From an uncultured archaeon (GTDB lineage Archaea; Asgardarchaeota; Heimdallarchaeia; Heimdallarchaeales; Heimdallarchaeaceae): a DNA stretch of 12,273 bases. Made by a program: the position numbers and the translations under genes. Below are positions 19 through 12,257 of the stretch, piece by piece. The stretch is taken from NCBI GenBank assembly GCA_964549075.1, contig CAZJUB010000077.1:1-12273 (forward strand), read 5' to 3'. The stretch's first letter is position 1. Every line of letters begins with the position of its first letter. A model generated the notes under the pieces. It made no database searches. It was not told the origin of the DNA and saw nothing but the letters and a program-made list of their open reading frames with translations.

Positions 19-609
19 TCAGTAAAAGTTAAAGAGTTTTTTTAGAATTTTATAGGCAAAAGATGTTACTCCATAACCTTTCTTACCCATATTTCTGTTG
101 ATTAATTTTCCAACTTGATTAAACATTCCTCGAAATTTATGAGCGAATATTGTGTCAAGCATTTTCATGTCATTAAATGAATCTGGGGGAAAATTTGGAC
201 CTGGTGTAAGGAAGAAACCTGTTGTGTTCAGCTTTTGATTGTTTTTGAAGAGCTTAACAAGTTTATCTGCTCCTCTCTCAGGATTTATTCTGATGTTTGA
301 GTAAGAAACTGGTGGTTGAATCTCTAATTCTGAAGATTGAAAAGCAATTGCTGAACAACCTTGAGTTGTTGGAGTATCGTTTGAGGTAGCAATTGCAGGA
401 AATGTACCTCCAATAATATTATCAGTACCACTTTCTTCACATAATTTTGTTATTGCTTCTTCATAATTTTTCTTTTCTCTATAATTAGGAGTGTATGCGA
501 CAATAATGAAGTCTGGAGTGCCATTGATGTCTCCAATAACATCATTGATTATGTGTTTAGTTGCAGTATGGATGGATCTGTGACTTGTTGTTCCTGCTAC
601 AATCTGCAT
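19..609 (-). CDS. FIST N-terminal domain signalling protein, probably C-terminally truncated
   Basis: FIST-N-like motifs 'PDFIIVAYT', 'NIIGGTFPAI', 'GCSAIAF'. Only 196 aa with no FIST-C domain; all three minus-strand frames stop within about 35 nt of the window edge. SD-like GAGGA lies just upstream of the ATG, overlapping the roadblock stop. Confidence 0.7.
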   Translation of the reverse strand: MQIVAGTTSHRSIHTATKHIINDVIGDINGTPDFIIVAYTPNYREKKNYEEAITKLCEESGTDNIIGGTFPAIATSNDTPTTQGCSAIAFQSSELEIQPPVSYSNIRINPERGADKLVKLFKNNQKLNTTGFFLTPGPNFPPDSFNDMKMLDTIFAHKFRGMFNQVGKLINRNMGKKGYGVTSFAYKILKKLFNFY

Positions 610-618
610 AAAAATTCC

Positions 619-978
619 TCATAGATAATTCGCAATTAAGAGAGCTTTTCTCTTGGATTCTATTGATAATAAACTTAGATTTGCATTTTTACTACTAATT
701 GTTGTTAATATGGTTATATTGTTCACAACATAAAAAATTACACAGAACTCACTTAATTCATAAGTAACCTTCTTAAGATTACTTGATTTCATTTCTAATG
801 AGACTTTGTCGACATTAGCTTTGCACCATTGAATTGTTCTTAGTAACTTATGGGAATATTCTTCCTTAAATGAAGAATCGACAACATTACCATCAATACG
901 AAATAAAATTGATGCTTCTACTTCTTCAAGATGAGTTAAATCTTGTAACTCGGAATTTATTCCCAGTTTTGAACTCAT
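619..978 (-). CDS. Roadblock/LC7 (MglB-like) domain protein
   Basis: 119 aa; 'LQDLTHLEEVEASILFRIDGNVVDSSF' matches the roadblock helix-strand-DG-strand pattern, followed by a helix, three strands and a final helix 'ANLSLLSIESKRKALLIANYL'. ATGA overlap with the upstream ATPase; SD-like GAGGT upstream. Confidence 0.85.
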   Translation of the reverse strand: MSSKLGINSELQDLTHLEEVEASILFRIDGNVVDSSFKEEYSHKLLRTIQWCKANVDKVSLEMKSSNLKKVTYELSEFCVIFYVVNNITILTTISSKNANLSLLSIESKRKALLIANYL

Positions 979-1907
979 TTTCTGACCTCTTGCAAAACGT
1001 GTTTGTCTGTTAGGACTTCAACTAGTTCCATATTTTGTCTTGTATCTCTTTTCTCTCTTTCACCTAGAAGATTCTTTGCAATTTGAGCTATGATTCGTTT
1101 TTTTGGATCCTTGTCCTGGGAAAGTTCTTTCACTTTCTTCATAAGTTCCTGATATCGAATATCATATACCATGGGATCAACTTCAACAGTCTCAACAGAA
1201 CTAGTATCAATGACAATACCAGGTCCATTAACAAAATTTAACGGATAAATTCCTTCATGATGTGGAGTTTTACGAGATTTGATAATCTTACATGTACGAT
1301 TGTATTTTCCTCCTAAACCTAGATTTTGGATATGGATAACACTGTCTGACAAGTAGATAGGAACTCTAGTTTCTGTAGCTCCAATGTCTGTTTGACCAAA
1401 TGCATTAGGTTCTTCAATAGTTTGTAGAACGGTTCCTAAAGAACTCAGATGTTGGTATATTTTAGTTAATACTTTTCGTTGTTCTTTTTCAGAGGGAAAC
1501 TCCCAAAGAATTGGAGTTAAAGGGTCTAAAACTATTCTTGTGTGTTTTATATTCCTGTGTTTAAGCTTCTGAGCTAAAGCAGGAAGAATATTTGTCATAA
1601 ATTCAACAATCTTCTCACTTTCTACTAAGTGGATTAAATCTTCTGCATCATTTGTTAGACTTCTAATGTCTATACCTAGAGCTTCTGCTTCACCAATTAA
1701 CTTAGATGGTGTTTCTTCGAAAGAAAGATACAGAGTATGATCTCCGTTCAGTAAACCTTGATATAAATAAGCTAAGGCAAATGTGGTCTTTCCAGTTCCA
1801 CTACAGCCAACTATTGAGTTAACTGAATTCTTAATTATTCCACCTTGTAAGAGAACGTCAATACCCTCTATTCCAGAGGAAATTCTTTCGGTGTTAATCA
1901 TTGACAT
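975..1907 (-). CDS. KaiC-like / RAD55-family RecA-superfamily ATPase, single domain with a C-terminal helical extension
   Basis: 'ERISSGIEGIDVLLQGG', Walker A 'GCSGTGKTT', 'LYLSFEE', Walker B 'RIVLD', 'YLSDSVI', Arg-finger 'IIKSRKTPH'; about 70 extra charged, helical residues at the C-terminus. Confidence 0.92.
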   Translation of the reverse strand: MSMINTERISSGIEGIDVLLQGGIIKNSVNSIVGCSGTGKTTFALAYLYQGLLNGDHTLYLSFEETPSKLIGEAEALGIDIRSLTNDAEDLIHLVESEKIVEFMTNILPALAQKLKHRNIKHTRIVLDPLTPILWEFPSEKEQRKVLTKIYQHLSSLGTVLQTIEEPNAFGQTDIGATETRVPIYLSDSVIHIQNLGLGGKYNRTCKIIKSRKTPHHEGIYPLNFVNGPGIVIDTSSVETVEVDPMVYDIRYQELMKKVKELSQDKDPKKRIIAQIAKNLLGEREKRDTRQNMELVEVLTDKHVLQEVRK

Positions 1908-2059: not shown

Positions 2060-2818
2060 ATGAATTCATTCTTTCAGAAAATTAAATCTATCTTTATTTC
2101 AGAAGAAAAAAGATTCAATTCTACATTATTGGAAGAGCTAGAAATAAAAAATTTCATTAATATCAGAAAACTTGATTCTCAATTAAGTTTAGAAAAACGT
2201 TATGTTTGTATTAGAAAACTTCAGAATTCAGGAAAGATATCTGGAGTCTTTCTCTCAGATAAATCGTTTTTTTTCTCAATTTCAGATGAAGAACTAAGTG
2301 AAATTAGAAATTCTTTAAAGAAACAAGGACAAGTTGAATTATCTCCTCTCAAAGATCGATGGTCAATCAATGAAAAAACTTTAGTCCCCTTCCTAATGCA
2401 CCTAGAAAATGGTCTTATAGGTAATAACAAATTTTACTCTTTCACATTTCTTCAGAGGGAATTTGTTACTGTTCTCAAGAACGTTGAGGAATATAATTTA
2501 GAGGAGTTACAAAAAACTTACGGATTTAAACTAGAAGATATTTTAAATTTAGTTGGAAAGATAGTTGATGAGAAAGAACTTGATGGAGTTGTACAAAAAA
2601 AATACTTATACACTGGATTTAAACAGTTCGAAGAGATTGTCTCGGAATTTATCGAAGATAATTTCGAAGATTCTTTAGAAATGACCTTTGATTTCATATC
2701 AGATAAGTTAGAAATTTCTGAAAAAGATGCAGAAAGATTTTTGGTAAATTATGTGGAAAATAATCCACACAAATTAATTGTATATCCTCTAGAAAAGAAA
2801 ATCAAATTTAAAGGATAA
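2060..2818 (+). CDS. Tandem PCI-like winged-helix protein with DDRGK1/UFL1-like segments
   Basis: About four 55-60 aa WH-like units. 'IRKLQNSGKISGVFLSDKSFFFSISDEELSEIRNSLKKQGQVELSPL' resembles the DDRGK domain; 'KTYGFKLEDILNLVGKIVDEKELDGVV' resembles UFL1 WH repeats. Start moved from TTG 2036 to ATG 2060 because the TATA box ends only 5 nt before 2036. Confidence 0.65.
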   Translation: MNSFFQKIKSIFISEEKRFNSTLLEELEIKNFINIRKLDSQLSLEKRYVCIRKLQNSGKISGVFLSDKSFFFSISDEELSEIRNSLKKQGQVELSPLKDRWSINEKTLVPFLMHLENGLIGNNKFYSFTFLQREFVTVLKNVEEYNLEELQKTYGFKLEDILNLVGKIVDEKELDGVVQKKYLYTGFKQFEEIVSEFIEDNFEDSLEMTFDFISDKLEISEKDAERFLVNYVENNPHKLIVYPLEKKIKFKG

Positions 2819-2929: not shown

Positions 2930-3364
2930 ATGGTCAGAAAGTTACCGTGGTTATTCCCAGGAATAAGAAGACCCAGTTTCAGTTTACATCAAGTGTCTAT
3001 AAGAATTCCCACACGTATTCCTATAAGCGTTCTATATGTTATAATATATGGAATCATATTTTATATATTCGCAGGTGGAGCTTATATGTTAGTAAATAAG
3101 GATAATTTGATTAGTATTGGTCAAAATGCAGGCAATCCTCAATTTATAGCTCCTAATGTACATTTACAATATCTCATTGAAGGAATAGTAGCAGGCTTTA
3201 TCTTTGCATTTGCTGCGCTAAGTCTTTATCTCTTTGATCATGCTACACGATATGCCTTCGATGTAAGTAGCGCACAAAAAATCGAATTAATCGCAACAAT
3301 ACTTATCATTATATGGTATGTAGCCATTCTCCTATTATTCAGGGCGAAAACGACAACAGGATAG
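2930..3364 (+). CDS. Oligosaccharyltransferase subunit OSTC/DC2-like (OST3/OST6 family membrane domain)
   Basis: 144 aa with three hydrophobic helices. 'FAGGAYMLV', 'PQFIAPNVHLQYLIEGIVAGFIF' and C-terminal 'LLFRAK' parallel OSTC as recalled ('TGGIIYDVI', '[22 protein letters not shown]', 'VFMRMK'). Pro-rich N-terminus; no thioredoxin domain. Confidence 0.82.
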   Translation: MVRKLPWLFPGIRRPSFSLHQVSIRIPTRIPISVLYVIIYGIIFYIFAGGAYMLVNKDNLISIGQNAGNPQFIAPNVHLQYLIEGIVAGFIFAFAALSLYLFDHATRYAFDVSSAQKIELIATILIIIWYVAILLLFRAKTTTG

Positions 3365-5540: not shown

Positions 5541-6656
5541 ATGAATTGGGATAATATGAAAAACCATACAGTAGTATTAATTTTAATTAGTATGCTAGCT
5601 TTAACAAGTGTTCGACCTATATATTCAGCTACAGAGCCAATTGTTGAAAAAAAGGTTCTAGATTATGTTATTCTCTATGATGAGTCTCATGGACAATATT
5701 TCAATAGGACACTTATGACTACAGCTTTGGATTCCCTTTCTAATATTACTGTGCAAGATCCTGAAGTAGAAATTAGCATCGATATATTATTCCAAGAAAA
5801 TGGTACAAAATTTAATTCAACAAATTTGCAAGGTATTGATCTATTGATCATAACCAATCCTGGGATAGACAATGATTTTACAAATGCTGAAATCAATGCT
5901 ATTCTGGATTTTGTTGAACTAGGTGGTTCTTTATTCTTACTTAATAATCCTCTAACTCGAAGTGAAAATATAACTGGTCACACTGCCACTATGAACAACT
6001 TACTTTCATCAAGAAGCAATAGAATGACCTCTGCTAGATTTACATCCTGCACAGATCAAATCCACTCTCAAGTAATAATAGATGATTTCAACTCCACATA
6101 TGGTAATGATTCCTACATAACAATAAATGAATACAATACAACCAAAAACATACTTACCTCACAAATTAGTTATTTCTGGCAAGAAGTTGCAATTGATAAT
6201 GTTACAATATATTCAACTCCTATTACACTAGGAAATGAAAAATCAGATGATAATACTGATAACGTGGAATTAGGGAAAACTCTTTTTACTTCTTACTCTG
6301 TTGATGAAGACTATAGTATCTTCAGAAATACAGCTACTGGCTTTCTTACTTGGTTACTGAGTAAAGATTTAGGAAATTCAAGATTAATTATGTCTGGCTC
6401 TACAATCATGTTTAGTGATTATATTATCTCTGGAAATTCAACTTGGATTGAAGAGAATCAAAATCTTGATTTGTGGAAAAATCTGATTCTTTGGCTCTTA
6501 GAATATACTCCTCATCCAGTTAGAGAGCCACCAGCAATTTGGGTTTTTGAGAATTATGCGTTAGTTGTTGCAGCTCTCTCCATTGTAATCTTTGGTATTT
6601 CTATAATTATTTACAAATATCGTAACAAAAAACGATTATCAGTTAAAATACAATAA
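5541..6656 (+). CDS. Type I membrane glycoprotein with a GIFT (GldG/IFT52/DUF4350/Wbp1-like) domain
   Basis: Signal peptide ('KNHTVVLILISMLALTSV', start at 5541 or 5557 region), 'ILYDESHGQ', 'DLLIITNP', 'EINAILDFVELGGSLFLL', 'SRLIMSGSTIMFSD', 'QNLDLWKNLILWL', C-terminal TM helix and basic tail. Ten N-x-S/T sequons in the mature part. Confidence 0.75.
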   Translation: MNWDNMKNHTVVLILISMLALTSVRPIYSATEPIVEKKVLDYVILYDESHGQYFNRTLMTTALDSLSNITVQDPEVEISIDILFQENGTKFNSTNLQGIDLLIITNPGIDNDFTNAEINAILDFVELGGSLFLLNNPLTRSENITGHTATMNNLLSSRSNRMTSARFTSCTDQIHSQVIIDDFNSTYGNDSYITINEYNTTKNILTSQISYFWQEVAIDNVTIYSTPITLGNEKSDDNTDNVELGKTLFTSYSVDEDYSIFRNTATGFLTWLLSKDLGNSRLIMSGSTIMFSDYIISGNSTWIEENQNLDLWKNLILWLLEYTPHPVREPPAIWVFENYALVVAALSIVIFGISIIIYKYRNKKRLSVKIQ

Positions 6657-6733: not shown

Positions 6734-8008
6734 ATGAATGTTCAAGACGATACAGATGCTAGTTCTTATATTTCACAGTTAATTGATTCGTTACTAAGAG
6801 GTGAAATTAATCCTAGTGATTTTGGCATTGCAATTAACCACTTCTCTAAAACTATGACGAGAAATCTCTTTCGAGACAGTCTTCCTAGATTTTACTCAAA
6901 TTTACGGTCGAAAAGCACCACTGTCTTCATGCGCTATTTCTTCAATGATGCTGCATACCAAGATAATGATCTATGGAAATTCGTTGATTACAAGGATTTT
7001 TGGGTACAACTCCTTAATTTTCATGATACTGTTTATACTCGTGATATGACTCTAGTTGATGTGTTAAAATTCTTTGAAGAAAATCTTTTTTTCACTAATA
7101 ACCGACCTAATCTGAGTTATCTTGAGCAAAAGGTGATTGAACTGCTAGATCAACAACCTCATCTTCTAAACAAAGATTTAGCTAAAAAATTCAAAGTTTC
7201 TGAAAAAAAAATAAGTAATCTGATGGGTGAACTAAAAAATAAAGGAATCTGTTTAGGTTCTTCAGTGGATTATTTAGCTTTAGATCTCCACGAATTTTTC
7301 ATCTTTGGAAATAGCAGTTTACAGGATGATAGAGCAATCTTATTAAAGAAATATGTTTTATTTCCTGGTTTTACAATTACTTATGGAGTAGCTTCTGAGA
7401 AAATTAATGGCCCCTCAATTTATACTGTATTGAACAAGAAAATCTTGTGTAACACTAAAATTCTCACTATGGGGATCTCTTTAAAAGATTGGAGTAGCCA
7501 TCCTATAAGAAAACCAGAGGTGTCATTACCAGTAAAAGAACAGGAAAGAGCATCTTTCTATCTTACACCAGTAAGTAAAGATTACATACTACAATTAGTT
7601 CGAAATTGTGAAACTGATTTTAGGAGACCCAATATAAAGAAAATAGCAGATCGCTTTGATGTCTCCATTAGAACATTATTTAGAATAAAATCGAAATTAA
7701 AGGATGGGGGTATAATTGTCCCTAGGATTATTTTGGAGAATGAAGAATTAATGTCCTTATTCCTGATATCTGAAAAAGAACTTGTTGAGTTTTACAATAA
7801 GGTTCCTTACATCGAATCCTATGAAGTACAGGATAATGAAGGTAACATTAAATGGTTAACAATTTTATCTATTTTCCCAAATGATTTCAATTTTATATAT
7901 AAAAAAAACAATAAACTAGTAGACATCTTTCAAGTAATTGAAAAAACTATCCTCAATCAAATTATTCATAATGAAGAGACATTATTACAATTAAATCAAA
8001 AAATTTAA
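6734..8008 (+). CDS. Transcriptional regulator with two winged-HTH (Lrp/AsnC-like) modules
   Basis: HTH1 'LSYLEQKVIELLDQQPHLLNKDLAKKFKVSEKKISNLMGELKNKGI' followed by 'VDYLALDL' (Lrp-type linker); HTH2 'NIKKIADRFDVSIRTLFRIKSKLKDGGII'. Extra helical N-terminal domain of about 125 aa. Confidence 0.75.
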   Translation: MNVQDDTDASSYISQLIDSLLRGEINPSDFGIAINHFSKTMTRNLFRDSLPRFYSNLRSKSTTVFMRYFFNDAAYQDNDLWKFVDYKDFWVQLLNFHDTVYTRDMTLVDVLKFFEENLFFTNNRPNLSYLEQKVIELLDQQPHLLNKDLAKKFKVSEKKISNLMGELKNKGICLGSSVDYLALDLHEFFIFGNSSLQDDRAILLKKYVLFPGFTITYGVASEKINGPSIYTVLNKKILCNTKILTMGISLKDWSSHPIRKPEVSLPVKEQERASFYLTPVSKDYILQLVRNCETDFRRPNIKKIADRFDVSIRTLFRIKSKLKDGGIIVPRIILENEELMSLFLISEKELVEFYNKVPYIESYEVQDNEGNIKWLTILSIFPNDFNFIYKKNNKLVDIFQVIEKTILNQIIHNEETLLQLNQKI

Positions 8009-8034
8009 ACAACGAAAAAATGGATGTTTATTAT

Positions 8035-10155
8035 ATGTCAAGTCAACGTTCACTAAAAGAAATAATAGAAATAATCTCTTCAGAAACAAATCTTGGGAAA
8101 GAAGAGATTCATAAGCGTATAAATGATAAGATGGAAGAACTTGGAGAGTTTGTAACTGAACTAGGAGCAGCTCATATCGTTGCAAGAGAGATGAGTGTTG
8201 ACTTGTCTTCTGAACCACCAATTCAAGTACAATCTCAGTTGACAATTGATCAATTAACTCCTGAAATAACAAGTGTTAATGTACTTGGCAGGATTCTAAG
8301 AATCTACGATCAGTATACCTTTAAGAAAAAGGATGGTACTGATGGGATATTGCAATCAATTTTAATCGAAGATAAAACTGGTAAAGTAAGAGTCGTATTT
8401 TGGGATCAGATAGTCTCTGAGTTGCAAAACAAGAATGCTAAAGTTGGAGATCCAATCAGGATTCTAAACGGATACACAAAGCTTGGACGAGATCAATCAA
8501 TAGAAGTACATTTAGGAATACGAAGTCAGGTTCAAATCCGTCCTTCCGGAATTGACGATACCCAACTTCCTGAAGCTCAGTCAACGTTTGTTAAAATAAA
8601 AGACATCAAAGAAAATGAAATTGATTTGTCCTTACATGCAAAGATAACTCAGATGGATGATTTACTAGAGTTTGAAAGATCTGATGGAACTAAAGGAAGA
8701 AAAAAAGGGCTAATTGTAGGTGATGAAACCGGAGAGATTTCCATTAATTTATGGAACGAGAAAGTTGATATTGCTGACAATTTAGCTTTAGGTGATATAA
8801 TTGAAGTAGTAGGTTTGGCAGCTAAAGAGGGACTAAGAGGTTTTATAGAATTGCATTCAAGTAGATATACAAGCATCTCTAAACTTGATAATGTTGACGA
8901 TATTATCGTGAAAAAAGGCTTCATAGGATCAAGTGCTGGAGTTGATTCACAATTAATAACTATAGAAAATATCACTAGTATCGGCAATCTCATTTCTACT
9001 AAAGGTATTATTGTTAATATTGTTCCTATTCATGAATTTACCAGAGATGATGGTTCTCAAGGTAAAGTTAGAAACATCTCAATTTCGGATAATTCTGGCA
9101 TTATAAATGTGGTTTTATGGGATGACAAAACTCAATTGATTAAAACTGAAGACATAAATAAGCTTCTAATTATAAAAAATGGTTATACAAGAAAGGGAAG
9201 GAATGCTGATATCGAAATCCATTGTGGTAATCAAACAATTTTAGATATAAAATCCCCAGATTCTACCGATATAGAGCCACTTGAATTCGATTTTATAGAT
9301 ATCAAAAATATCTCTGATGATATGGAAGAAGTGCATGTACAAGGAGTGATAACTGATTTTTCAGCAGTTCAGGATATTGTTACAAAAAACAATGAAACTA
9401 TTCAATTGAGGAATCTTAGAATTGAAGATCAAACTGCTTCTATCCGTATAACAAGTTGGAGAGATAATGTATCAAAACTTACAGGACTAGCTGTGGGTGA
9501 TACTATAGAACTTTTCAATGCTGCGGTAAAAGAAGATACTGGTTATGGTTTAGAACTACTAATTACACGGAATACCATTGTAAAAAAATCTTCATCTAGT
9601 TCCTCTAATCCTCAAGGATTTGTCTCAAGTTTAACTGTTTCGCCTAAGGAAACCAATCTTGAAAAACTCAAGGATATTGAAGATATAGAAGAAGGTGATG
9701 AGGTTACTATACAAGCAACTGTTATTAAATTAATCGAGAAACAATTTGTGTATCCTTTGTGTCCTGAATGTAAGAAAAAGGTAAAAAAGGAAAATTCTGA
9801 CTATATCTGTTCAGAACATGGAAAAGTAGATGATCCTTTAAATAGAATTCTATTTACATTTATAGCTAATGATGGTACTGGAAATATCAATGTACTTTGT
9901 GCTGGAAAATTAGCTGAAATTGTTTTAGGCGTTTCTGCTGATGATGCAGCACGAATGGTAGAGGAGAGTGAATCAGATAAAGCTCCTTACAATTATCTTA
10001 AATCAAAGAACTTCGTTAATTCAGAACTTATAATAAGTGGTAAAGTCAATAAGAATACTTATCTAGATAGCCTAGAAATAATCGCAAACTCCATTGAAAC
10101 AGTGAAATACTCTGAAGCTACCAAGACAATGATAAATCAAATACATACCAATTAA
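8035..10155 (+). CDS. rpa: Replication protein A large subunit (DUF2240-like N-terminus, five OB folds, zinc finger)
   Basis: N-terminal 'GEFVTELGAAHIVAREM'; repeated OB motifs 'IEDKTGKVRVVFWD', 'VGDETGEISINLWN', 'ISDNSGIINVVLWD', 'IEDQTASIRITSWR', 'ANDGTGNINVLCAG'; zinc ligands 'CPEC...CSEH'. ATG 8035 is preferred over 8020 because TTTAAA at 8004-8009 lies about 26 nt upstream. Confidence 0.93.
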   Translation: MSSQRSLKEIIEIISSETNLGKEEIHKRINDKMEELGEFVTELGAAHIVAREMSVDLSSEPPIQVQSQLTIDQLTPEITSVNVLGRILRIYDQYTFKKKDGTDGILQSILIEDKTGKVRVVFWDQIVSELQNKNAKVGDPIRILNGYTKLGRDQSIEVHLGIRSQVQIRPSGIDDTQLPEAQSTFVKIKDIKENEIDLSLHAKITQMDDLLEFERSDGTKGRKKGLIVGDETGEISINLWNEKVDIADNLALGDIIEVVGLAAKEGLRGFIELHSSRYTSISKLDNVDDIIVKKGFIGSSAGVDSQLITIENITSIGNLISTKGIIVNIVPIHEFTRDDGSQGKVRNISISDNSGIINVVLWDDKTQLIKTEDINKLLIIKNGYTRKGRNADIEIHCGNQTILDIKSPDSTDIEPLEFDFIDIKNISDDMEEVHVQGVITDFSAVQDIVTKNNETIQLRNLRIEDQTASIRITSWRDNVSKLTGLAVGDTIELFNAAVKEDTGYGLELLITRNTIVKKSSSSSSNPQGFVSSLTVSPKETNLEKLKDIEDIEEGDEVTIQATVIKLIEKQFVYPLCPECKKKVKKENSDYICSEHGKVDDPLNRILFTFIANDGTGNINVLCAGKLAEIVLGVSADDAARMVEESESDKAPYNYLKSKNFVNSELIISGKVNKNTYLDSLEIIANSIETVKYSEATKTMINQIHTN

Positions 10156-10334: not shown

Positions 10335-12257
10335 CTATATTTCTAGTATCATGCCTTTCCTCTTGTTGTAGATTTTAATTCCTATTGTTAGTATTACTAA
10401 AAGCACACTAGTTGTTATAGCTACAGGAATTATAATATTCGTAAACGAATTACTATTAGAATTTCTACTGCCTACCAAATCAAAGACCAAAATACTACCT
10501 TGTAAAATATCTAAATTAGTAAAGTATGCATATAGACTTGTTACTTCTAATTTGTGTTGCTCAGTAACGTCTCTTTGATTATTTATTATAAGGCTCCAGT
10601 CATACTTGGAGGCGCTATAACTCTCATTGAAGCGATAAATAATAGAGAGATTAGTATATTGTTTTGTATCAGATGTTATTACAAAATGAACCATAATTTC
10701 GCCATCGGTTTCTTCATCAGTTACTTCTAATTCAGGTCCTTCTGTTATAACTATTAATTTGTGATCATCTGTCTCTTCGTTTGCTTGTACTTGCCAGTAA
10801 AATGAATTAGAATCCCACATTACTGGAATTCTTAAATCTGGAGTTTCTATGTATGCATCTAATATTGGAACCATTTCCTCATCAATTCTGTATGTCCATC
10901 TATCGTGACTTATTGAATAATTTATATCATACACTAAAGTTATGTTTGTTGAGATGAGAACATCATCAATACTTCTTTTCGCTCCTACAAGACTATTTTC
11001 AAATTCTATTTCAAAGTTCTCTCTACTTACTATTTGTGTTACTTTGAATAAGGTGCAAGTTATGTTTATGAATAGCTCATCTAAAGGCAATTCTATAATA
11101 AATGAATATAACCCATTTAGTTCTGTTATACCAGTTTTTTGGATGTCTTGATTTATCTCTACAGTAATGGGTGCATATCCAACGGGTTGTCCACTTGATG
11201 TAATATTGAAACTTAAAATATATTCAGCTTGATTCTTATATGGTTCATAATTAAAATCAATGACAATACTACTTTCCTCAATGGTAATATTAACTGATTT
11301 TGATATGCTTGAATGAGTTAGAGATTGTGCTGTAATAACTAGGAGATATTCGCTTTTTGTAAGATAGAACGATGAAAGGTAAATAAAGTAATCTCCATTC
11401 TGCTCAATTGCGGGGATTATCTCCCCTTCAAGATTTGCTTCAACTATTGCATTCTCTATTTCTACATATGGATCTAAAGTCTCGTAGCTTACCCTAATCT
11501 CTTTCATTGCATATTTTGGAATGTTGATTTGTTCCTCAACAGTCATCACTGCAGGTTTTCTTAGAAGGTTTATTGTATCATTTTTATACCCTATGAGGTT
11601 ACCATCGAATATTAACAATGTTATATCTATTATTCCATCTGAAATATAAGGAGGAAACAAAAAAGATATGCTATCATTATTTAGTTCACAGGTTATACCT
11701 ATTACCTCACCTGTATCCCAAAATATGTAGATAGAAGGATTTGATGTAGGATTTTGGAATAAAAGTGAAGCATTTAGAGTTTCAAAAATTACTGTGTTCT
11801 CATACTCTACATCCAAAATATAGTTATTTATTGCAAAATCACATTGAATAGATGTAAAAGGTTCTTGTCTAAGAAGTAAAAGTCTTTTGTAACCATTACC
11901 CAAGTCATTATCTGAAATAACATTAGCACCTATAAGGTTATCAAAATTCAGCCAAACATCCGGGTATGTTATGTTGATGTTATTAATTAACGTATTTAGA
12001 TTAAGCATATTTATCGAATACAAGATTGTGGTTTGATTGTAAAACTCAATTTGCTTTGTACATGTTATTTCAACAATTCCAATTAATCTCATCGAATAGT
12101 TACCTGTAATTGTTCTAGTTGAATTATTATTCCAAAGAATATCATATTAAACTTGTGAATCTTCAACATAAATTATTGCATCAATATATACCGTCCCTGG
12201 TCCTAAAGAAACTACTTGTATGTCATTTATTACATTTATACCAGTATGGCTGAGGTA
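10335..12257 (-). CDS. Large beta-rich surface/extracellular glycoprotein with C-terminal TM anchor; 5'-incomplete or interrupted
   Basis: Ig-like strand patterns, about a dozen sequons, S/N linker, TM helix 'IIIPVAITTSVLLVILTIGI' and basic tail. The ORF-track start at 12092 has no signal peptide. The same frame continues upstream through one TAA (12147-12149) to a TGA at 12258-12260. Confidence 0.7.

Follow-up and report, generated by a model that had tools for sequence, protein, structure and literature searches.

A stand-alone protein of four winged helices in Heimdallarchaeaceae resembles the core of the UFM1 ligase scaffold

UFMylation uses an unusual scaffold-type E3, in which two subunits share one winged-helix (WH) domain. 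A contig of an uncultured archaeon of the Heimdallarchaeaceae (Asgardarchaeota; GCA_964549075.1, CAZJUB010000077.1), analysed here over 12,273 nucleotides and called the window in the following, encodes a protein of 252 residues that a first-pass annotation likened to both of these subunits at once, DDRGK1 (UFBP1) and UFL1. The locus therefore raises the question of whether an archaeal chain can be related to the ligase scaffold, how much of the scaffold it holds, and what it might do in an archaeon. A 2023 publication already traces UFL1 and DDRGK1 to Asgard archaea and gives them a role independent of UFM1, and UFL1-like Heimdall proteins have been catalogued. Because the general claim has thus been made before, what we add is narrower, namely the anatomy of the protein, its phyletic decoupling from a modifier system and its OST gene context. 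We found neither a published fission scenario nor an Asgard OSTC subunit in those parts of the literature that were accessible, and the one spreadsheet of Picchianti 2023 that was available contains no archaeal terms.

The gene occupies positions 2060..2818 of the forward strand, from an ATG at 2060 to a TAA at 2816-2818. Its mechanically defined open reading frame opens upstream, at a TTG at 2036, but the alignment of homologues fixes the start at the ATG: the methionine matching position 2060 is used by all 16 aligned homologues, most of which are 252 residues long. The product is acidic, with a pI of 5.3 (5.0-6.0 over the 16 aligned homologues), and no hydrophobic segment was detected in it (highest 19-residue Kyte-Doolittle mean, 0.59); it is predicted to be soluble. 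It is the sole match to Pfam PF09743 in its own genome, which is 89.7% complete. The gene occurs in 21 of the 24 congeners, and the stand-alone form of 250-290 residues is found in three Heimdall families. None of the 24 runs that contain the stretch is listed as an RNA run, and a scan for sigma-70 promoters and terminators is uninformative here, the host being an archaeon.

In line with the first-pass annotation, which had counted about four tandem WH-like units, the AlphaFold2 model (pLDDT 88.3, pTM 0.75) consists of a short N-terminal helix followed by four winged helices, at residues ~13-74, 75-127, 128-186 and 187-252. The basic, amphipathic N-terminal helix (residues 2-12; 2063..2095, forward strand, as are all units) is modelled at lower confidence, with a block pLDDT of 54 for residues 1-10 and of 81 for residues 11-20. 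It is nevertheless the most conserved stretch of the protein (mean column identity 0.85, pI 10.0), with F12 invariant and F4, K7, I8 and K9 nearly so. WH-A (residues 13-74; 2096..2281) is the counterpart of WH1' of DDRGK1/UFBP1. WH-B (residues 75-127; 2282..2440) is a complete winged helix in the model; it contains the invariant W101, which sits at the joint between DDRGK1 and UFL1 in the engineered fusion 8B9X. WH-C (residues 128-186; 2441..2617) is the least conserved unit, with a mean column identity of 0.56. WH-D (residues 187-252; 2618..2815) is PCI-like, with a weak PCI match in Pfam, and ends in a conserved Y-P-L-E-K hairpin, of which Y242 and P243 are invariant even among the orthologues of 16-21% identity. 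Charge is distributed unevenly along the chain, the N-terminal helix and WH-A being basic and WH-C and WH-D strongly acidic.

The N-terminal half carries the resemblance to DDRGK1. The Pfam model DDRGK (PF09756) matches residues 15-97 with 32.9 bits against a cut-off of 27.8, covering positions 96-179 of its 188; it exceeds its cut-off in five of 22 other family representatives, and 11 of the 22 show the same N-terminal register at E<=0.01. With the human chain alone, the family profile aligns residues 17-98 with DDRGK1 213-295 (E 9.5e-4), which is the pairing that the first-pass annotation had proposed for DDRGK1. The structural alignment to 8c0d_E, from the minimal E3 structure 8C0D, covers residues 17-103 of the model and DDRGK1 213-306 (Z 8.8, rmsd 3.5 A over 86 residues). 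The DDRGK loop motif itself is not kept, the HMMER alignment showing the consensus P-E-K-S-F in its columns; its basic position is retained as the nearly invariant K68, which aligns with the loop arginine. Just 12 residues precede WH-A, and the membrane anchor, the long ribosome-docking helix and the UFM1-interacting motif of the DDRGK1 N-terminus are absent.

The UFL1 model of Pfam, E3_UFM1_ligase (PF09743), extends further along the chain: it matches residues 79-222 to profile positions 118-268 with 27.9 bits against a cut-off of 23.2. The cut-off is exceeded in 16 of the 22 family representatives (best score 47.3 bits), and the register, which agrees with the UFL1 alignment suggested earlier, is shared by 19 of them. 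Both halves come together in 8B9X, a human fusion engineered from DDRGK1(207-305) and UFL1(27-200). Among PDB sequences, its chain 8b9x_A is the top match of the family profile (E 5.7e-7), aligning residues 17-219 with 8-222 in one colinear stretch, while the full-length UFL1 chains in the PDB are not matched by the profile at E<=10. Structure comparison agrees. In a fold ranking of 48,161 representative chains, 8b9x comes first with a Z of 12.4 over 238 residues, followed at Z 9.0 by a single WH, and in Foldseek five of the six matches at E<=0.001 are UFL1 or DDRGK1 chains. The resemblance of this protein to the core of the UFM1 ligase scaffold is thereby confirmed, and the proposal that a single chain resembles both partners is supported: it passes the Pfam cut-offs of both, and the fusion of the two is its best profile match.

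Like the core of 8B9X, the archaeal protein has four consecutive winged helices (252 against about 255 residues), and its first unit, together with half of the second, resembles WH1' of DDRGK1 with its partial WH. In the 8b9x_A alignment, it is the first half of WH-B that pairs with this C-terminal partial WH. According to the portion of the structural literature that we could consult, the WH divided between UFL1 and UFBP1 forms a composite domain in the eukaryotic pair. In contrast to the human scaffold, the archaeal protein is a natural single chain, so its second WH is whole rather than assembled from two proteins; completion in trans, as in DDRGK1, is not seen in the model. The identity to 8B9X is 16-17%. 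The inter-domain geometry differs or is flexible, the global superposition on 8B9X being poor (TM 0.39, rmsd 10.5 A), and sharing of the arc shape is therefore not supported.

The sequence alignments disagree on the unit-to-unit correspondence with UFL1. In the alignment to the fusion, WH-B, WH-C and WH-D pair with the partial WH, WH1 and WH2 of UFL1, while the Pfam register places them at profile positions 118-266 in 19 of the 22 representatives; WH-C accordingly corresponds either to UFL1 WH1 or to profile positions ~170-232. Pfam scans of single WH units (12 fragments, four units from each of three proteins) could not assign the units one by one, since no fragment reached any cut-off. Strong internal repetition does not explain the conflict of registers either, because the units show little similarity to one another: the closest pair, A and C, gives a P of 0.0025 and a probability of 11.7%.

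How specific, then, is the resemblance? The first-pass annotation had asked for profile and structure comparisons against other WH families, and both favour UFL1/DDRGK1: DDRGK and E3_UFM1_ligase are over their cut-offs and PCI (PF01399) is under its own (17.0 bits against 22), and Foldseek prefers UFL1/DDRGK1 chains to those of ESCRT-II and SelB. The relationship to PCI domains is nonetheless visible. PCI exceeds its cut-off in 11 of the 22 relatives, on a single WH; the orthologues in the two other Heimdall families match PCI only, or nothing; and WH-C and WH-D superpose on the PCI winged helices of the proteasome lid and the COP9 signalosome with Z 9-9.7 and rmsd 1.2-2.1 A. Unlike the PCI subunits of the proteasome lid, the COP9 signalosome and eIF3, the archaeal protein has four tandem WHs instead of one and no helical-repeat solenoid. 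Furthermore, the DDRGK and E3_UFM1_ligase models pick up numerous multi-WH proteins from Asgard archaea that look unrelated, and they do so in differing registers. Given this, and given that single units match nothing specific, the signal is that of a tandem array of PCI-like WHs.

Longer Asgard proteins with DDRGK, E3_UFM1_ligase and PCI matches (~390-810 residues; e.g. P0044, P0054, P0061, P0070 and P0046), with source names of Promethearchaeota and Helarchaeota, contain the same kind of WH array; Liu et al. 2020/2021 had drawn attention to such multi-WH proteins. In hhalign, our family runs colinear with them, starting at the DDRGK-like unit (93.2% and 92.5% probability). They differ in having extra N- and C-terminal modules, more WH units and, in some cases, Vps28-like or zinc-ribbon fusions, and their Pfam matches are cleanly colinear and score higher than those of the four-WH protein, with DDRGK ending within a few residues of the start of E3_UFM1_ligase (profile position ~25). 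Profile matches outside the Heimdall class are mostly long open reading frames, many of ~790-810 residues. An exhaustive search of 1.84 billion representatives yielded no Pfam score of UFL1/DDRGK1 grade among the 40 distant matches scanned (E3_UFM1_ligase and DDRGK <=53 bits).

The UFC1-binding α1 helix, which precedes the partial WH in UFL1, is absent, as it is from the ΔN fusion; there is no insertion at the junction of WH-A and WH-B, and the sole extra helix lies at the very N-terminus. The chain stops after the fourth WH, at residue 252, and has no five-WH array with C-terminal helical domain of the UFL1 type. Compared with the human scaffold, it is thus devoid of the transmembrane anchor, the UFIM, the long UFBP1 helix, and WH3-5 and the C-terminal domain of UFL1. 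In the part of the structural literature available to us, it is the C-terminal domain of UFL1 and the N-terminal helix of UFBP1 that obstruct the tRNA sites and attach next to the ribosomal exit tunnel. The clamping of large ribosomal subunits, which the earlier annotation had brought into play, is not supported, as both of these elements and the membrane anchor are absent here and CDK5RAP3 was not found in the genome. Judged by the model, the protein represents the central winged-helix core only, and since anchor, UFM1-binding motif, UFC1-binding helix and clamp ends are missing, a role as a ligase or ribosome clamp is not supported.

The distribution of the modifier system points in the same direction. 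As had been observed before, the window harbours no UFM1, E1 or E2 gene; none of the 11 open reading frames scanned in it matches such a family in Pfam. UFM1, UFC1, UFSP and CDK5RAP3 were not found in the genome either (89.7% complete; for three of the families, the control genomes gave no match either), and Pfam Ufm1 matched none of the 83 genomes of the class. Published Asgard homologues of Ufm1 exist; they are divergent and were found by structure, and the supplement of the same paper includes UFC1-like and Ufm1-like Loki proteins. Because of this, and of the incompleteness of the genome, not finding a Ufm1-like protein carries little weight. Searches with alignments from the same family found a UFC1-like E2 in seven and a Ufm1-like Ubl in six of 31 family genomes, each in one of 24 in the genus and neither in the genome of the window. 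In sister genera, they form an operon with an E1 and a JAMM protein, the Ubl ending in V-G, and this operon has an ESCRT-II-like EAP30 gene next to it; at none of the loci seen does it adjoin the four-WH gene. The suggested independence from UFM1 fits this phyletic pattern, Ubl and UFC1-like E2 being missing in 23 of 24 congeners.

The four-WH gene is followed by a gene for a protein of 144 residues (2930..3364, forward strand) with three transmembrane segments, a possible partner. Its reading as OSTC-like is borne out: of the three PDB matches that the family profile has at E<=10, two are to human OSTC chains, with E-values of 0.0037 and 0.01, whereas the other, at E 1.8, is to an unrelated protein, and residues 29-106 align with 30-108 of human OSTC (6s7o_H, E 0.0037). 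Pfam OST3_OST6 matches with 28.6 bits against a cut-off of 27, at profile positions 183-289 of 294 and hence in the C-terminal membrane part only. The protein resembles OSTC/DC2 of the eukaryotic OST-A complex in length (144 against 149 residues), in its three membrane segments and in the colinearity of the profile match, but this match is weak (20.5 bits), and the N-terminal tail of the archaeal protein is long, basic and strongly conserved.

Synteny with the OSTC-like gene holds within the genus, at all 19 loci from other genomes, and in genome G041, where the gene is directly downstream. It does not hold further out, the two genes being 6-11 kb apart in G044, G045 and G046 and on different contigs in G072. 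STT3 is directly upstream of the four-WH gene in G044. Four other genera of the family have an OST-type gene next to the four-WH gene or no more than about 11 kb from it. Since members of one family share their gene order by descent, these neighbours amount to few independent events. In the third Heimdall family, genes for an Alg9-like glycosyltransferase and a ribosomal stalk protein flank the four-WH gene at both loci scanned, while no glycosylation or OST gene was found among the neighbours scanned at seven loci of the second. A CCDC47-like match in the third family was given no weight, as it covers a short N-terminal stretch with 27.9 against 27.7 bits. The proposed action on translocon-bound ribosomes is not supported beyond this gene neighbourhood, which recurs in two of three Heimdall families and is absent from one. 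eL13, which UFL1 contacts through WH1 and WH2 in the portion of the structural description that we could consult, was not found in the genome, and the control search was silent as well.

A further gene of the window (5541..6656, forward strand) encodes a membrane-anchored GIFT-domain protein of 371 residues, possibly OST48/Wbp1-like; in G043, a homologue of this gene immediately follows the four-WH gene. Its Pfam matches to ABC_transp_aux, IFT52_GIFT, DUF4350 and OST48_N are weak, and two of 46 homologues have a precomputed OST48_N match. Its own sequence has no PDB match, and its family profile matches only the GIFT domain of IFT52 (E 0.0022). In Foldseek, the model retrieves this domain (E 7e-5) and then OST complex chains (E 2e-4 to 1.2e-3); as the model is mediocre (pLDDT 61.7), the label 'OST48-like' stays tentative.

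We consider the protein to be best explained as a non-catalytic adaptor from an archaeon that is related to the UFL1-UFBP1(DDRGK1) WH core and would act at the membrane machinery for secretion and N-glycosylation, and we assign this reading a probability of about one half. The WH that the eukaryotic partners build jointly would correspond to one intact domain in the archaeal chain. The protein would mediate protein-protein contacts and would not serve as a UFM1 ligase, because the UFC1-binding helix, UFM1-binding motif, anchor and clamp ends, and in the genus the Ufm1-like/UFC1-like operon, are missing. An adaptor is favoured over a nucleic-acid binder by the acidic pI of the 16 aligned homologues and by the ribosomal contacts of the UFL1 WH domains, which, in the part of the structural literature accessible to us, are almost exclusively with ribosomal proteins. 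The most likely place of action would be the membrane-associated machinery of secretion and N-glycosylation, i.e. OST subunits and perhaps membrane-bound large ribosomal subunits, with partners bound through the WH surfaces and the conserved N-terminal amphipathic helix.

Several other identities have to be weighed. Binding of nucleic acids, as by an mRNA- or DNA-binding regulator akin to the four-WH tail of SelB, might be read from the basic N-terminal helix and WH-A, from weak SelB-wing_3 matches of WH-B (at most 22.3 bits, with the cut-off at 23.2) and from a C-terminal SelB fragment that comes sixth in Foldseek (E 1.8e-4, TM 0.37). This fragment, however, ranks 4-5 orders of magnitude in E-value below the UFL1/DDRGK1 chains, and compared with SelB WH1-4 the archaeal protein stands alone, with no EF-Tu-like GTPase or other nucleic-acid module attached and with an acidic C-terminal half in place of a basic WH4, so we regard this reading as very unlikely. 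An ESCRT-II-type subunit of the Vps25 or Vps22/36 kind is extremely improbable: Odinarchaeota Vps25 (E 1.4e-3 over 140 columns) and human ESCRT-II chains do occur in Foldseek at E 1.4e-3 to 1e-2, but they span two WH units and rank below UFL1/DDRGK1, neither the window protein nor the 22 representatives has an EAP30 or ESCRT-II match in Pfam, no ESCRT gene neighbours it in the window, and the EAP30-like gene of the sister genera is a separate one in the Ubl operon. More weight attaches to a generic tandem-WH adaptor that works with KaiC-like ATPase, Roadblock-like and FIST-like genes in a module for signalling or regulation that has no connection with ribosomes or glycosylation, its likeness to UFL1/DDRGK1 reflecting nothing but shared PCI-like descent, as the Pfam matches of diverse Asgard WH arrays would allow. 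The KaiC-like gene of the window (975..1907, reverse strand; Pfam KaiC E 1.2e-36) is the most widely retained neighbour in the family, at least as constant as the OST-type genes: within the genus it adjoins the four-WH gene at each of the 19 other loci, and outside it in G041, G044 and G045, some of them genomes where the OSTC-like gene has moved away, and a KaiC-like gene occurs two genes downstream at both loci scanned in the third family. Yet the two genes of the window are divergently transcribed, the third-family genes may not be orthologous (33-41% identity over ~50 residues to the window's KaiC), none was seen at the seven second-family loci, and the 119-residue gene of the window is just weakly Roadblock-like (E 0.062). 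We therefore think this reading unlikely.

The two remaining possibilities concern the relation to the modifier system. The protein might serve an archaeal ubiquitin-like modifier as a genuine E3-like adaptor, together with an E2 and a Ubl so divergent that they escaped the searches; the operon of the sister genera, the published Asgard homologues, the lysine at the arginine position of the DDRGK loop and the conserved N-terminal helix would all be compatible with this. Against it, the operon was seen beside EAP30 and not the four-WH gene, it is missing where the four-WH gene is retained, and no helix occupies the α1 position of UFL1, between WH-A/B and the rest; on balance, we find it quite unlikely. 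Similarly improbable to us is a bolder version of kinship, in which the protein is an unsplit, modifier-independent UFL1-UFBP1 core that couples membrane-bound large subunits to OST and the translocon through the OSTC-like subunit. In eukaryotes, this core would later have been divided within its second winged helix, with one of the halves becoming fixed to the ER, and the Ufm1-like/UFC1-like system, which in Asgard archaea sits in a separate, ESCRT-linked operon, would have been added to it.

This family has lost, or never used, Ufm1-like and UFC1-like genes, and yet keeps company with OST genes. The four-WH protein may thus offer a simple, expressible object for asking what the scaffold did before it was a ligase.

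The gene at window positions 2060–2818 on the forward strand (252 codons, ATG at 2060, TAA at 2816–2818) encodes an acidic protein with four winged helices (WH), to which we refer as the four-WH protein; the surrounding window is AT-rich, with a GC content of 0.28–0.34. A mechanical ORF list begins this frame upstream, at TTG 2036, and we place the start at ATG 2060 because the corresponding methionine is the first residue in all 16 aligned homologues, most of which are 252 aa long. The close homologues carry the source names Candidatus Heimdallarchaeaceae and Heimdallarchaeota. The isoelectric point is 5.3 for the window copy and 5.0–6.0 over the 16 aligned sequences, and no hydrophobic segment was found in the protein. 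An AlphaFold2 model built from the 16-sequence alignment (mean pLDDT 88.3, pTM 0.75) consists of an N-terminal helix (residues 2–12) and four winged helices, WH-A (13–74), WH-B (75–127), WH-C (128–186) and WH-D (187–252), in line with the tandem WH-like units of the first-pass annotation. The N-terminal helix and WH-A are basic, WH-C and WH-D acidic, and the sequence likeness among the units is slight (best pair A–C, 11.7% hhalign probability). Within the genus, the protein evolves much faster than its neighbours: at loci L002–L021, its identity to the window copy is 37–66%, compared with 76–94% for the adjacent KaiC-like and 66–85% for the OSTC-like protein. One copy in another Asgard genome (G028:C126:53717–54511, reverse strand) is full-length in its match except for one in-frame TAG.

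The resemblance of this protein to the two scaffold components of the eukaryotic UFM1 E3 ligase, DDRGK1 (also called UFBP1) and UFL1, is real and goes beyond chance. The Pfam family DDRGK scores 32.9 bits (cut-off 27.8, E 6.2e-8) over WH-A and the first half of WH-B (profile positions 96–179 of 188), and E3_UFM1_ligase scores 27.9 bits (cut-off 23.2, E 2.3e-6) from WH-B to most of WH-D (profile 118–268 of 272), in the same register as the UFL1 alignment of the first-pass annotation; PCI is weaker (17.0 bits, below its cut-off of 22). Among 22 further representatives, E3_UFM1_ligase matches 19 at E<=0.01 and 16 over the cut-off, in one constant register and with up to 47.3 bits; DDRGK matches 15 and 5, respectively, with the N-terminal register in 11, and PCI matches 20 and 11. 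When the family profile is compared with all PDB sequences, the top match is the engineered human DDRGK1–UFL1 fusion (8b9x_A, E 5.7e-7), aligned without a break (residues 17–219 with 8–222) and followed in rank by three DDRGK1 chains, while PCI, ESCRT-II and SelB chains are absent at E<=10. The structural comparisons yield a similar picture: Foldseek returns six matches at E<=0.001, five of them UFL1 or DDRGK1 chains and the sixth the four-WH tail of SelB, and an independent structural comparison against 48,161 representative chains ranks 8b9x first (Z 12.4, 238 aligned residues), the runners-up being single-WH matches with Z of 9.0 or lower. The best matches are thus not generic WH families, since profile and structure searches alike favour DDRGK1 and UFL1, and the reading of this gene as a relative of both proteins was correct. 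It encodes a soluble WH array homologous to the UFL1–UFBP1 core.

How far this homology extends to individual domains is less clear. The model has four WH units, as does 8B9X, but its global superposition on that structure is poor (TM 0.39, rmsd 10.5 Å) and lends no support to a common arc shape. The alignment with the fusion pairs WH-B with the composite WH of the eukaryotic complex, and WH-C and WH-D with UFL1 WH1 and WH2, whereas the Pfam register places WH-B to WH-D at profile positions ~118–266, a shift of some one to two units towards the UFL1 C-terminus; the two alignments thus disagree on the unit-by-unit equivalence to UFL1. Only the correspondence of WH-A and the start of WH-B to WH1' and the partial WH of DDRGK1 is consistent across all methods, including a structural alignment of model residues 17–103 with DDRGK1 213–306 (Z 8.8, rmsd 3.5 Å), which upholds the proposed DDRGK1 likeness of the N-terminal part. 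The Pfam signal arises from the tandem arrangement of the WH units: single units (12 fragments from three family members) gave no specific match and stayed below every cut-off. Both profiles also match many heterogeneous Asgard multi-WH proteins in varied registers (40 proteins scanned), and the four-WH orthologues in the two other Heimdall families have PCI matches only, or none.

According to the available text of Banerjee et al. 2023 (PMC10702826) and Makhlouf et al. 2024 (PMC10937380), eukaryotic UFL1–UFBP1 comprises seven WH domains, one of them a composite to which each protein contributes a partial WH, and 8B9X combines DDRGK1 207–305 with UFL1 27–200 in four WH repeats. The archaeal protein matches this four-WH core only, and the composite WH corresponds to a single undivided domain in it, WH-B, whose invariant W101 coincides with the junction of DDRGK1 and UFL1 in the fusion. 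The same accounts describe a C-shaped clamp on the 60S subunit, one end of which is formed by the C-terminal domain of UFL1 at the tRNA sites and the other by the N-terminal helix of UFBP1 beside the exit tunnel, with CDK5RAP3 bridging the middle; WH1 and WH2 contact eL13, UFBP1 WH1' makes no ribosome contact, and the N-terminal helix of UFL1 is required for UFC1 binding and activity. Unlike UFL1, the archaeal protein has no helix at the α1 position, no WH3–5 and no C-terminal domain; unlike UFBP1, it has no UFIM, long helix or transmembrane anchor, and a lysine at the arginine position is the sole remnant of the DDRGK motif. Its closest counterpart is the inactive ΔN fusion. Because these helices, the anchor, WH3–5 and the C-terminal domain are missing, it cannot act by the known mechanism as the ribosome clamp invoked in the first-pass annotation.

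An exhaustive profile search retrieved 57 proteins at E<=0.001, including 14 at E<=1e-30, all of 242–254 aa. Five proteins of 262–265 aa are full-length orthologues with 16–21% identity, which retain G62, F71, G90, W101 and the terminal Y-P motif. Matches at E<=1e-5 occur in 55 of 83 genomes of the class: not counting the window's own genome, in 27/30 of its own family (f1), in 11/12 each of f3 and f7, the other two Heimdall families with the gene, weakly and within ORFs of 591–598 aa in 5/22 of f5, and in 0/6 of f2, f4 and f6. An f7 orthologue is colinear with the window family (94% hhalign probability). Across the phylum, matches occur in 131 of 400 genomes, beyond the class mostly through long ORFs, many of ~790–810 aa. 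Among the 40 scanned distant proteins, at least four (P0044, P0054, P0061 and P0070) show DDRGK ending at profile position ~182–184 and E3_UFM1_ligase beginning 4–11 residues later, at profile position 22–29; in them, the DDRGK1 and UFL1 parts follow each other cleanly in one unsplit chain, with the UFL1 α1 helix left out. The window family is colinear with P0044 (93.2%) and P0070 (92.5%) by hhalign; by source name, P0054 and P0061 are from Promethearchaeota and another of the longer proteins, P0036, from Helarchaeota. The nearest archaeal kin of eukaryotic DDRGK1 and UFL1 is more likely to lie among such longer Asgard proteins than in the 252-aa family.

The gene does not appear to depend on a Ufm1-like modifier. 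Pfam Ufm1 finds no match in the window's own genome (89.7% complete) or in any of the 83 class genomes, and UFC1, Peptidase_C78 and CDK5RAP3, three profiles for which control genomes are also silent, have none in the own genome. UFC1 exceeds its cut-off of 25 in five class genomes (25.7–28.1 bits), where an operon outside the window (loci L065–L069: G017:C14, G041:C33, G045:C1, G042:C7 and G046:C1) encodes a ThiF-type E1, a JAMM protease, a Ubl of 87 aa with V-G at its C-terminus (weak Ufm1 match, E 0.061), a UFC1-like E2 (26–27 bits versus 16 for UQ_con; best PDB match a UFC1, E 0.022), an ESCRT-II-like EAP30 protein and a Band_7 protein. With alignments of the operon proteins as queries, the E2 was found in 7 and the Ubl in 6 of 31 family genomes, each in 1/24 of the window's genus and neither in the own genome; of the other genera in the family, all have the E2 and three of the four the Ubl. 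The four-WH gene is present in the own genome and in 21/24 of the genus, so that it is kept where the Ufm1-like and UFC1-like genes are gone, and it is unlinked to the operon at the loci seen in genomes with both. This favours a modifier-independent role, as had been surmised, bearing in mind that the genomes are incomplete and that Asgard Ufm1 homologues are divergent and were found by structure (Koestlbacher et al. 2026, PMC12962969, available text). The supplement of that study lists UFC1-like and Ufm1-like proteins from Loki, and the portion available of Picchianti 2023 reports UFC1 and UFM1 as eukaryote-only.

The next gene (2930–3364, forward strand, 111 bp downstream) is OSTC-like, as previously noted: its 144-aa product has three transmembrane segments and passes Pfam OST3_OST6 in the C-terminal membrane part, and its family profile yields three PDB matches at E<=10, two of which are OSTC. 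Its cytosolic-looking, basic N-terminal tail (residues 1–32, window 2930–3025) is almost invariant across 10 genomes, with P6, W7, P10, G11, R14, P15, R25, R29 and P31 among the fully invariant positions, which suggests a conserved binding function. Co-transcription is not assured, because the spacer contains T-runs and an A/T-rich box. Divergently upstream (19–1907, reverse strand), the gene for the KaiC-like ATPase is accompanied by one whose 119-aa product weakly resembles Roadblock/LC7 over its full length (E 0.062) and by one for a FIST-like protein of 196 aa, as against 435–446 aa in other genera; four genera of the family retain this run next to the four-WH gene.

The proposed synteny with OSTC holds in the window, in all 19 other-genome loci of the genus, where the gene order is kept (all five genes in 18), and in G041 of another f1 genus, but not everywhere. 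Elsewhere in f1, the OSTC-like gene lies 5.9 kb off in G044, where STT3 (E 4.7e-46) adjoins the four-WH gene upstream on the same strand, and ~11 kb off in G045 and G046; in G043, the four-WH gene is directly followed by a homologue of window gene 5541–6656 and has uL3/uL4 on its other side. Two of the five f7 loci retrieved were scanned with Pfam (L058 in G072, L060 in G081): one flank carries genes for the acidic stalk protein Ribosomal_60s and an Alg9-like GT22 mannosyltransferase, the other a 261–281-aa gene of unnamed function, a KaiC-like gene and one for a two-TM protein, which has a borderline match to the CCDC47 N-terminus (27.9 versus 27.7 bits). The OSTC-like and four-WH genes of G072 are on different contigs, and the seven f3 loci retrieved have no glycosylation or OST gene among the neighbours scanned. 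The Pfam scan of neighbours across these loci covered 50 of 124 selected ORFs. The link to N-glycosylation genes is recurrent, not universal, and reflects few independent events.

Further downstream, the gene at 5541–6656 (forward strand) encodes a 371-aa GIFT-domain protein, membrane-anchored with N- and C-terminal hydrophobic segments and weakly similar to the N-domain of OST48/Wbp1 (E 0.066 in Pfam and 2e-4 to 1.2e-3 in Foldseek, model pLDDT 61.7), and is followed by one for a 424-aa protein with two HTH/WH matches (6734–8008, forward strand). Two distant multi-WH proteins (P0053 and P0057, 1258 and 1459 aa) fuse GIFT-like DUF4350/ABC_transp_aux domains to DDRGK/E3_UFM1-like WH arrays, so the window may contain an equivalent of this architecture divided between the two genes. 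Other window genes encode a 711-aa RPA-like protein that combines several OB folds with a DUF2240-like segment at its N-terminus (8020–10155, forward strand) and a 585-aa protein with no family match and a putative C-terminal membrane anchor (10335–12092, reverse strand).

Proteins of this kind are already known: Picchianti et al. 2023 put forward an Asgard origin of UFL1 and DDRGK1 with a UFM1-independent role, the available text of Liu et al. 2020 (bioRxiv) describes Asgard fusions with an E3 UFM1-ligase-1 domain, and in the supplement of Koestlbacher et al. 2026 UFL1 is given as the best structural match for Heimdall proteins, among them cog.009033 (range 22–250, ESP flag from Liu et al. 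2021), with no occurrence of DDRGK or OSTC in the file. The literature searched, in the portions available, contains no statement on the single-chain double match, a fission within the composite WH or the neighbourhood of OST genes. Anatomy and gene context are partly new. The four-WH protein would be a non-catalytic adaptor whose WH surfaces bind other proteins, as those of UFL1 do, with the conserved basic amphipathic N-terminal helix as a putative binder of a partner or the membrane and the OST/secretory machinery as its putative site of action; we give this joint reading a probability of about 0.5.
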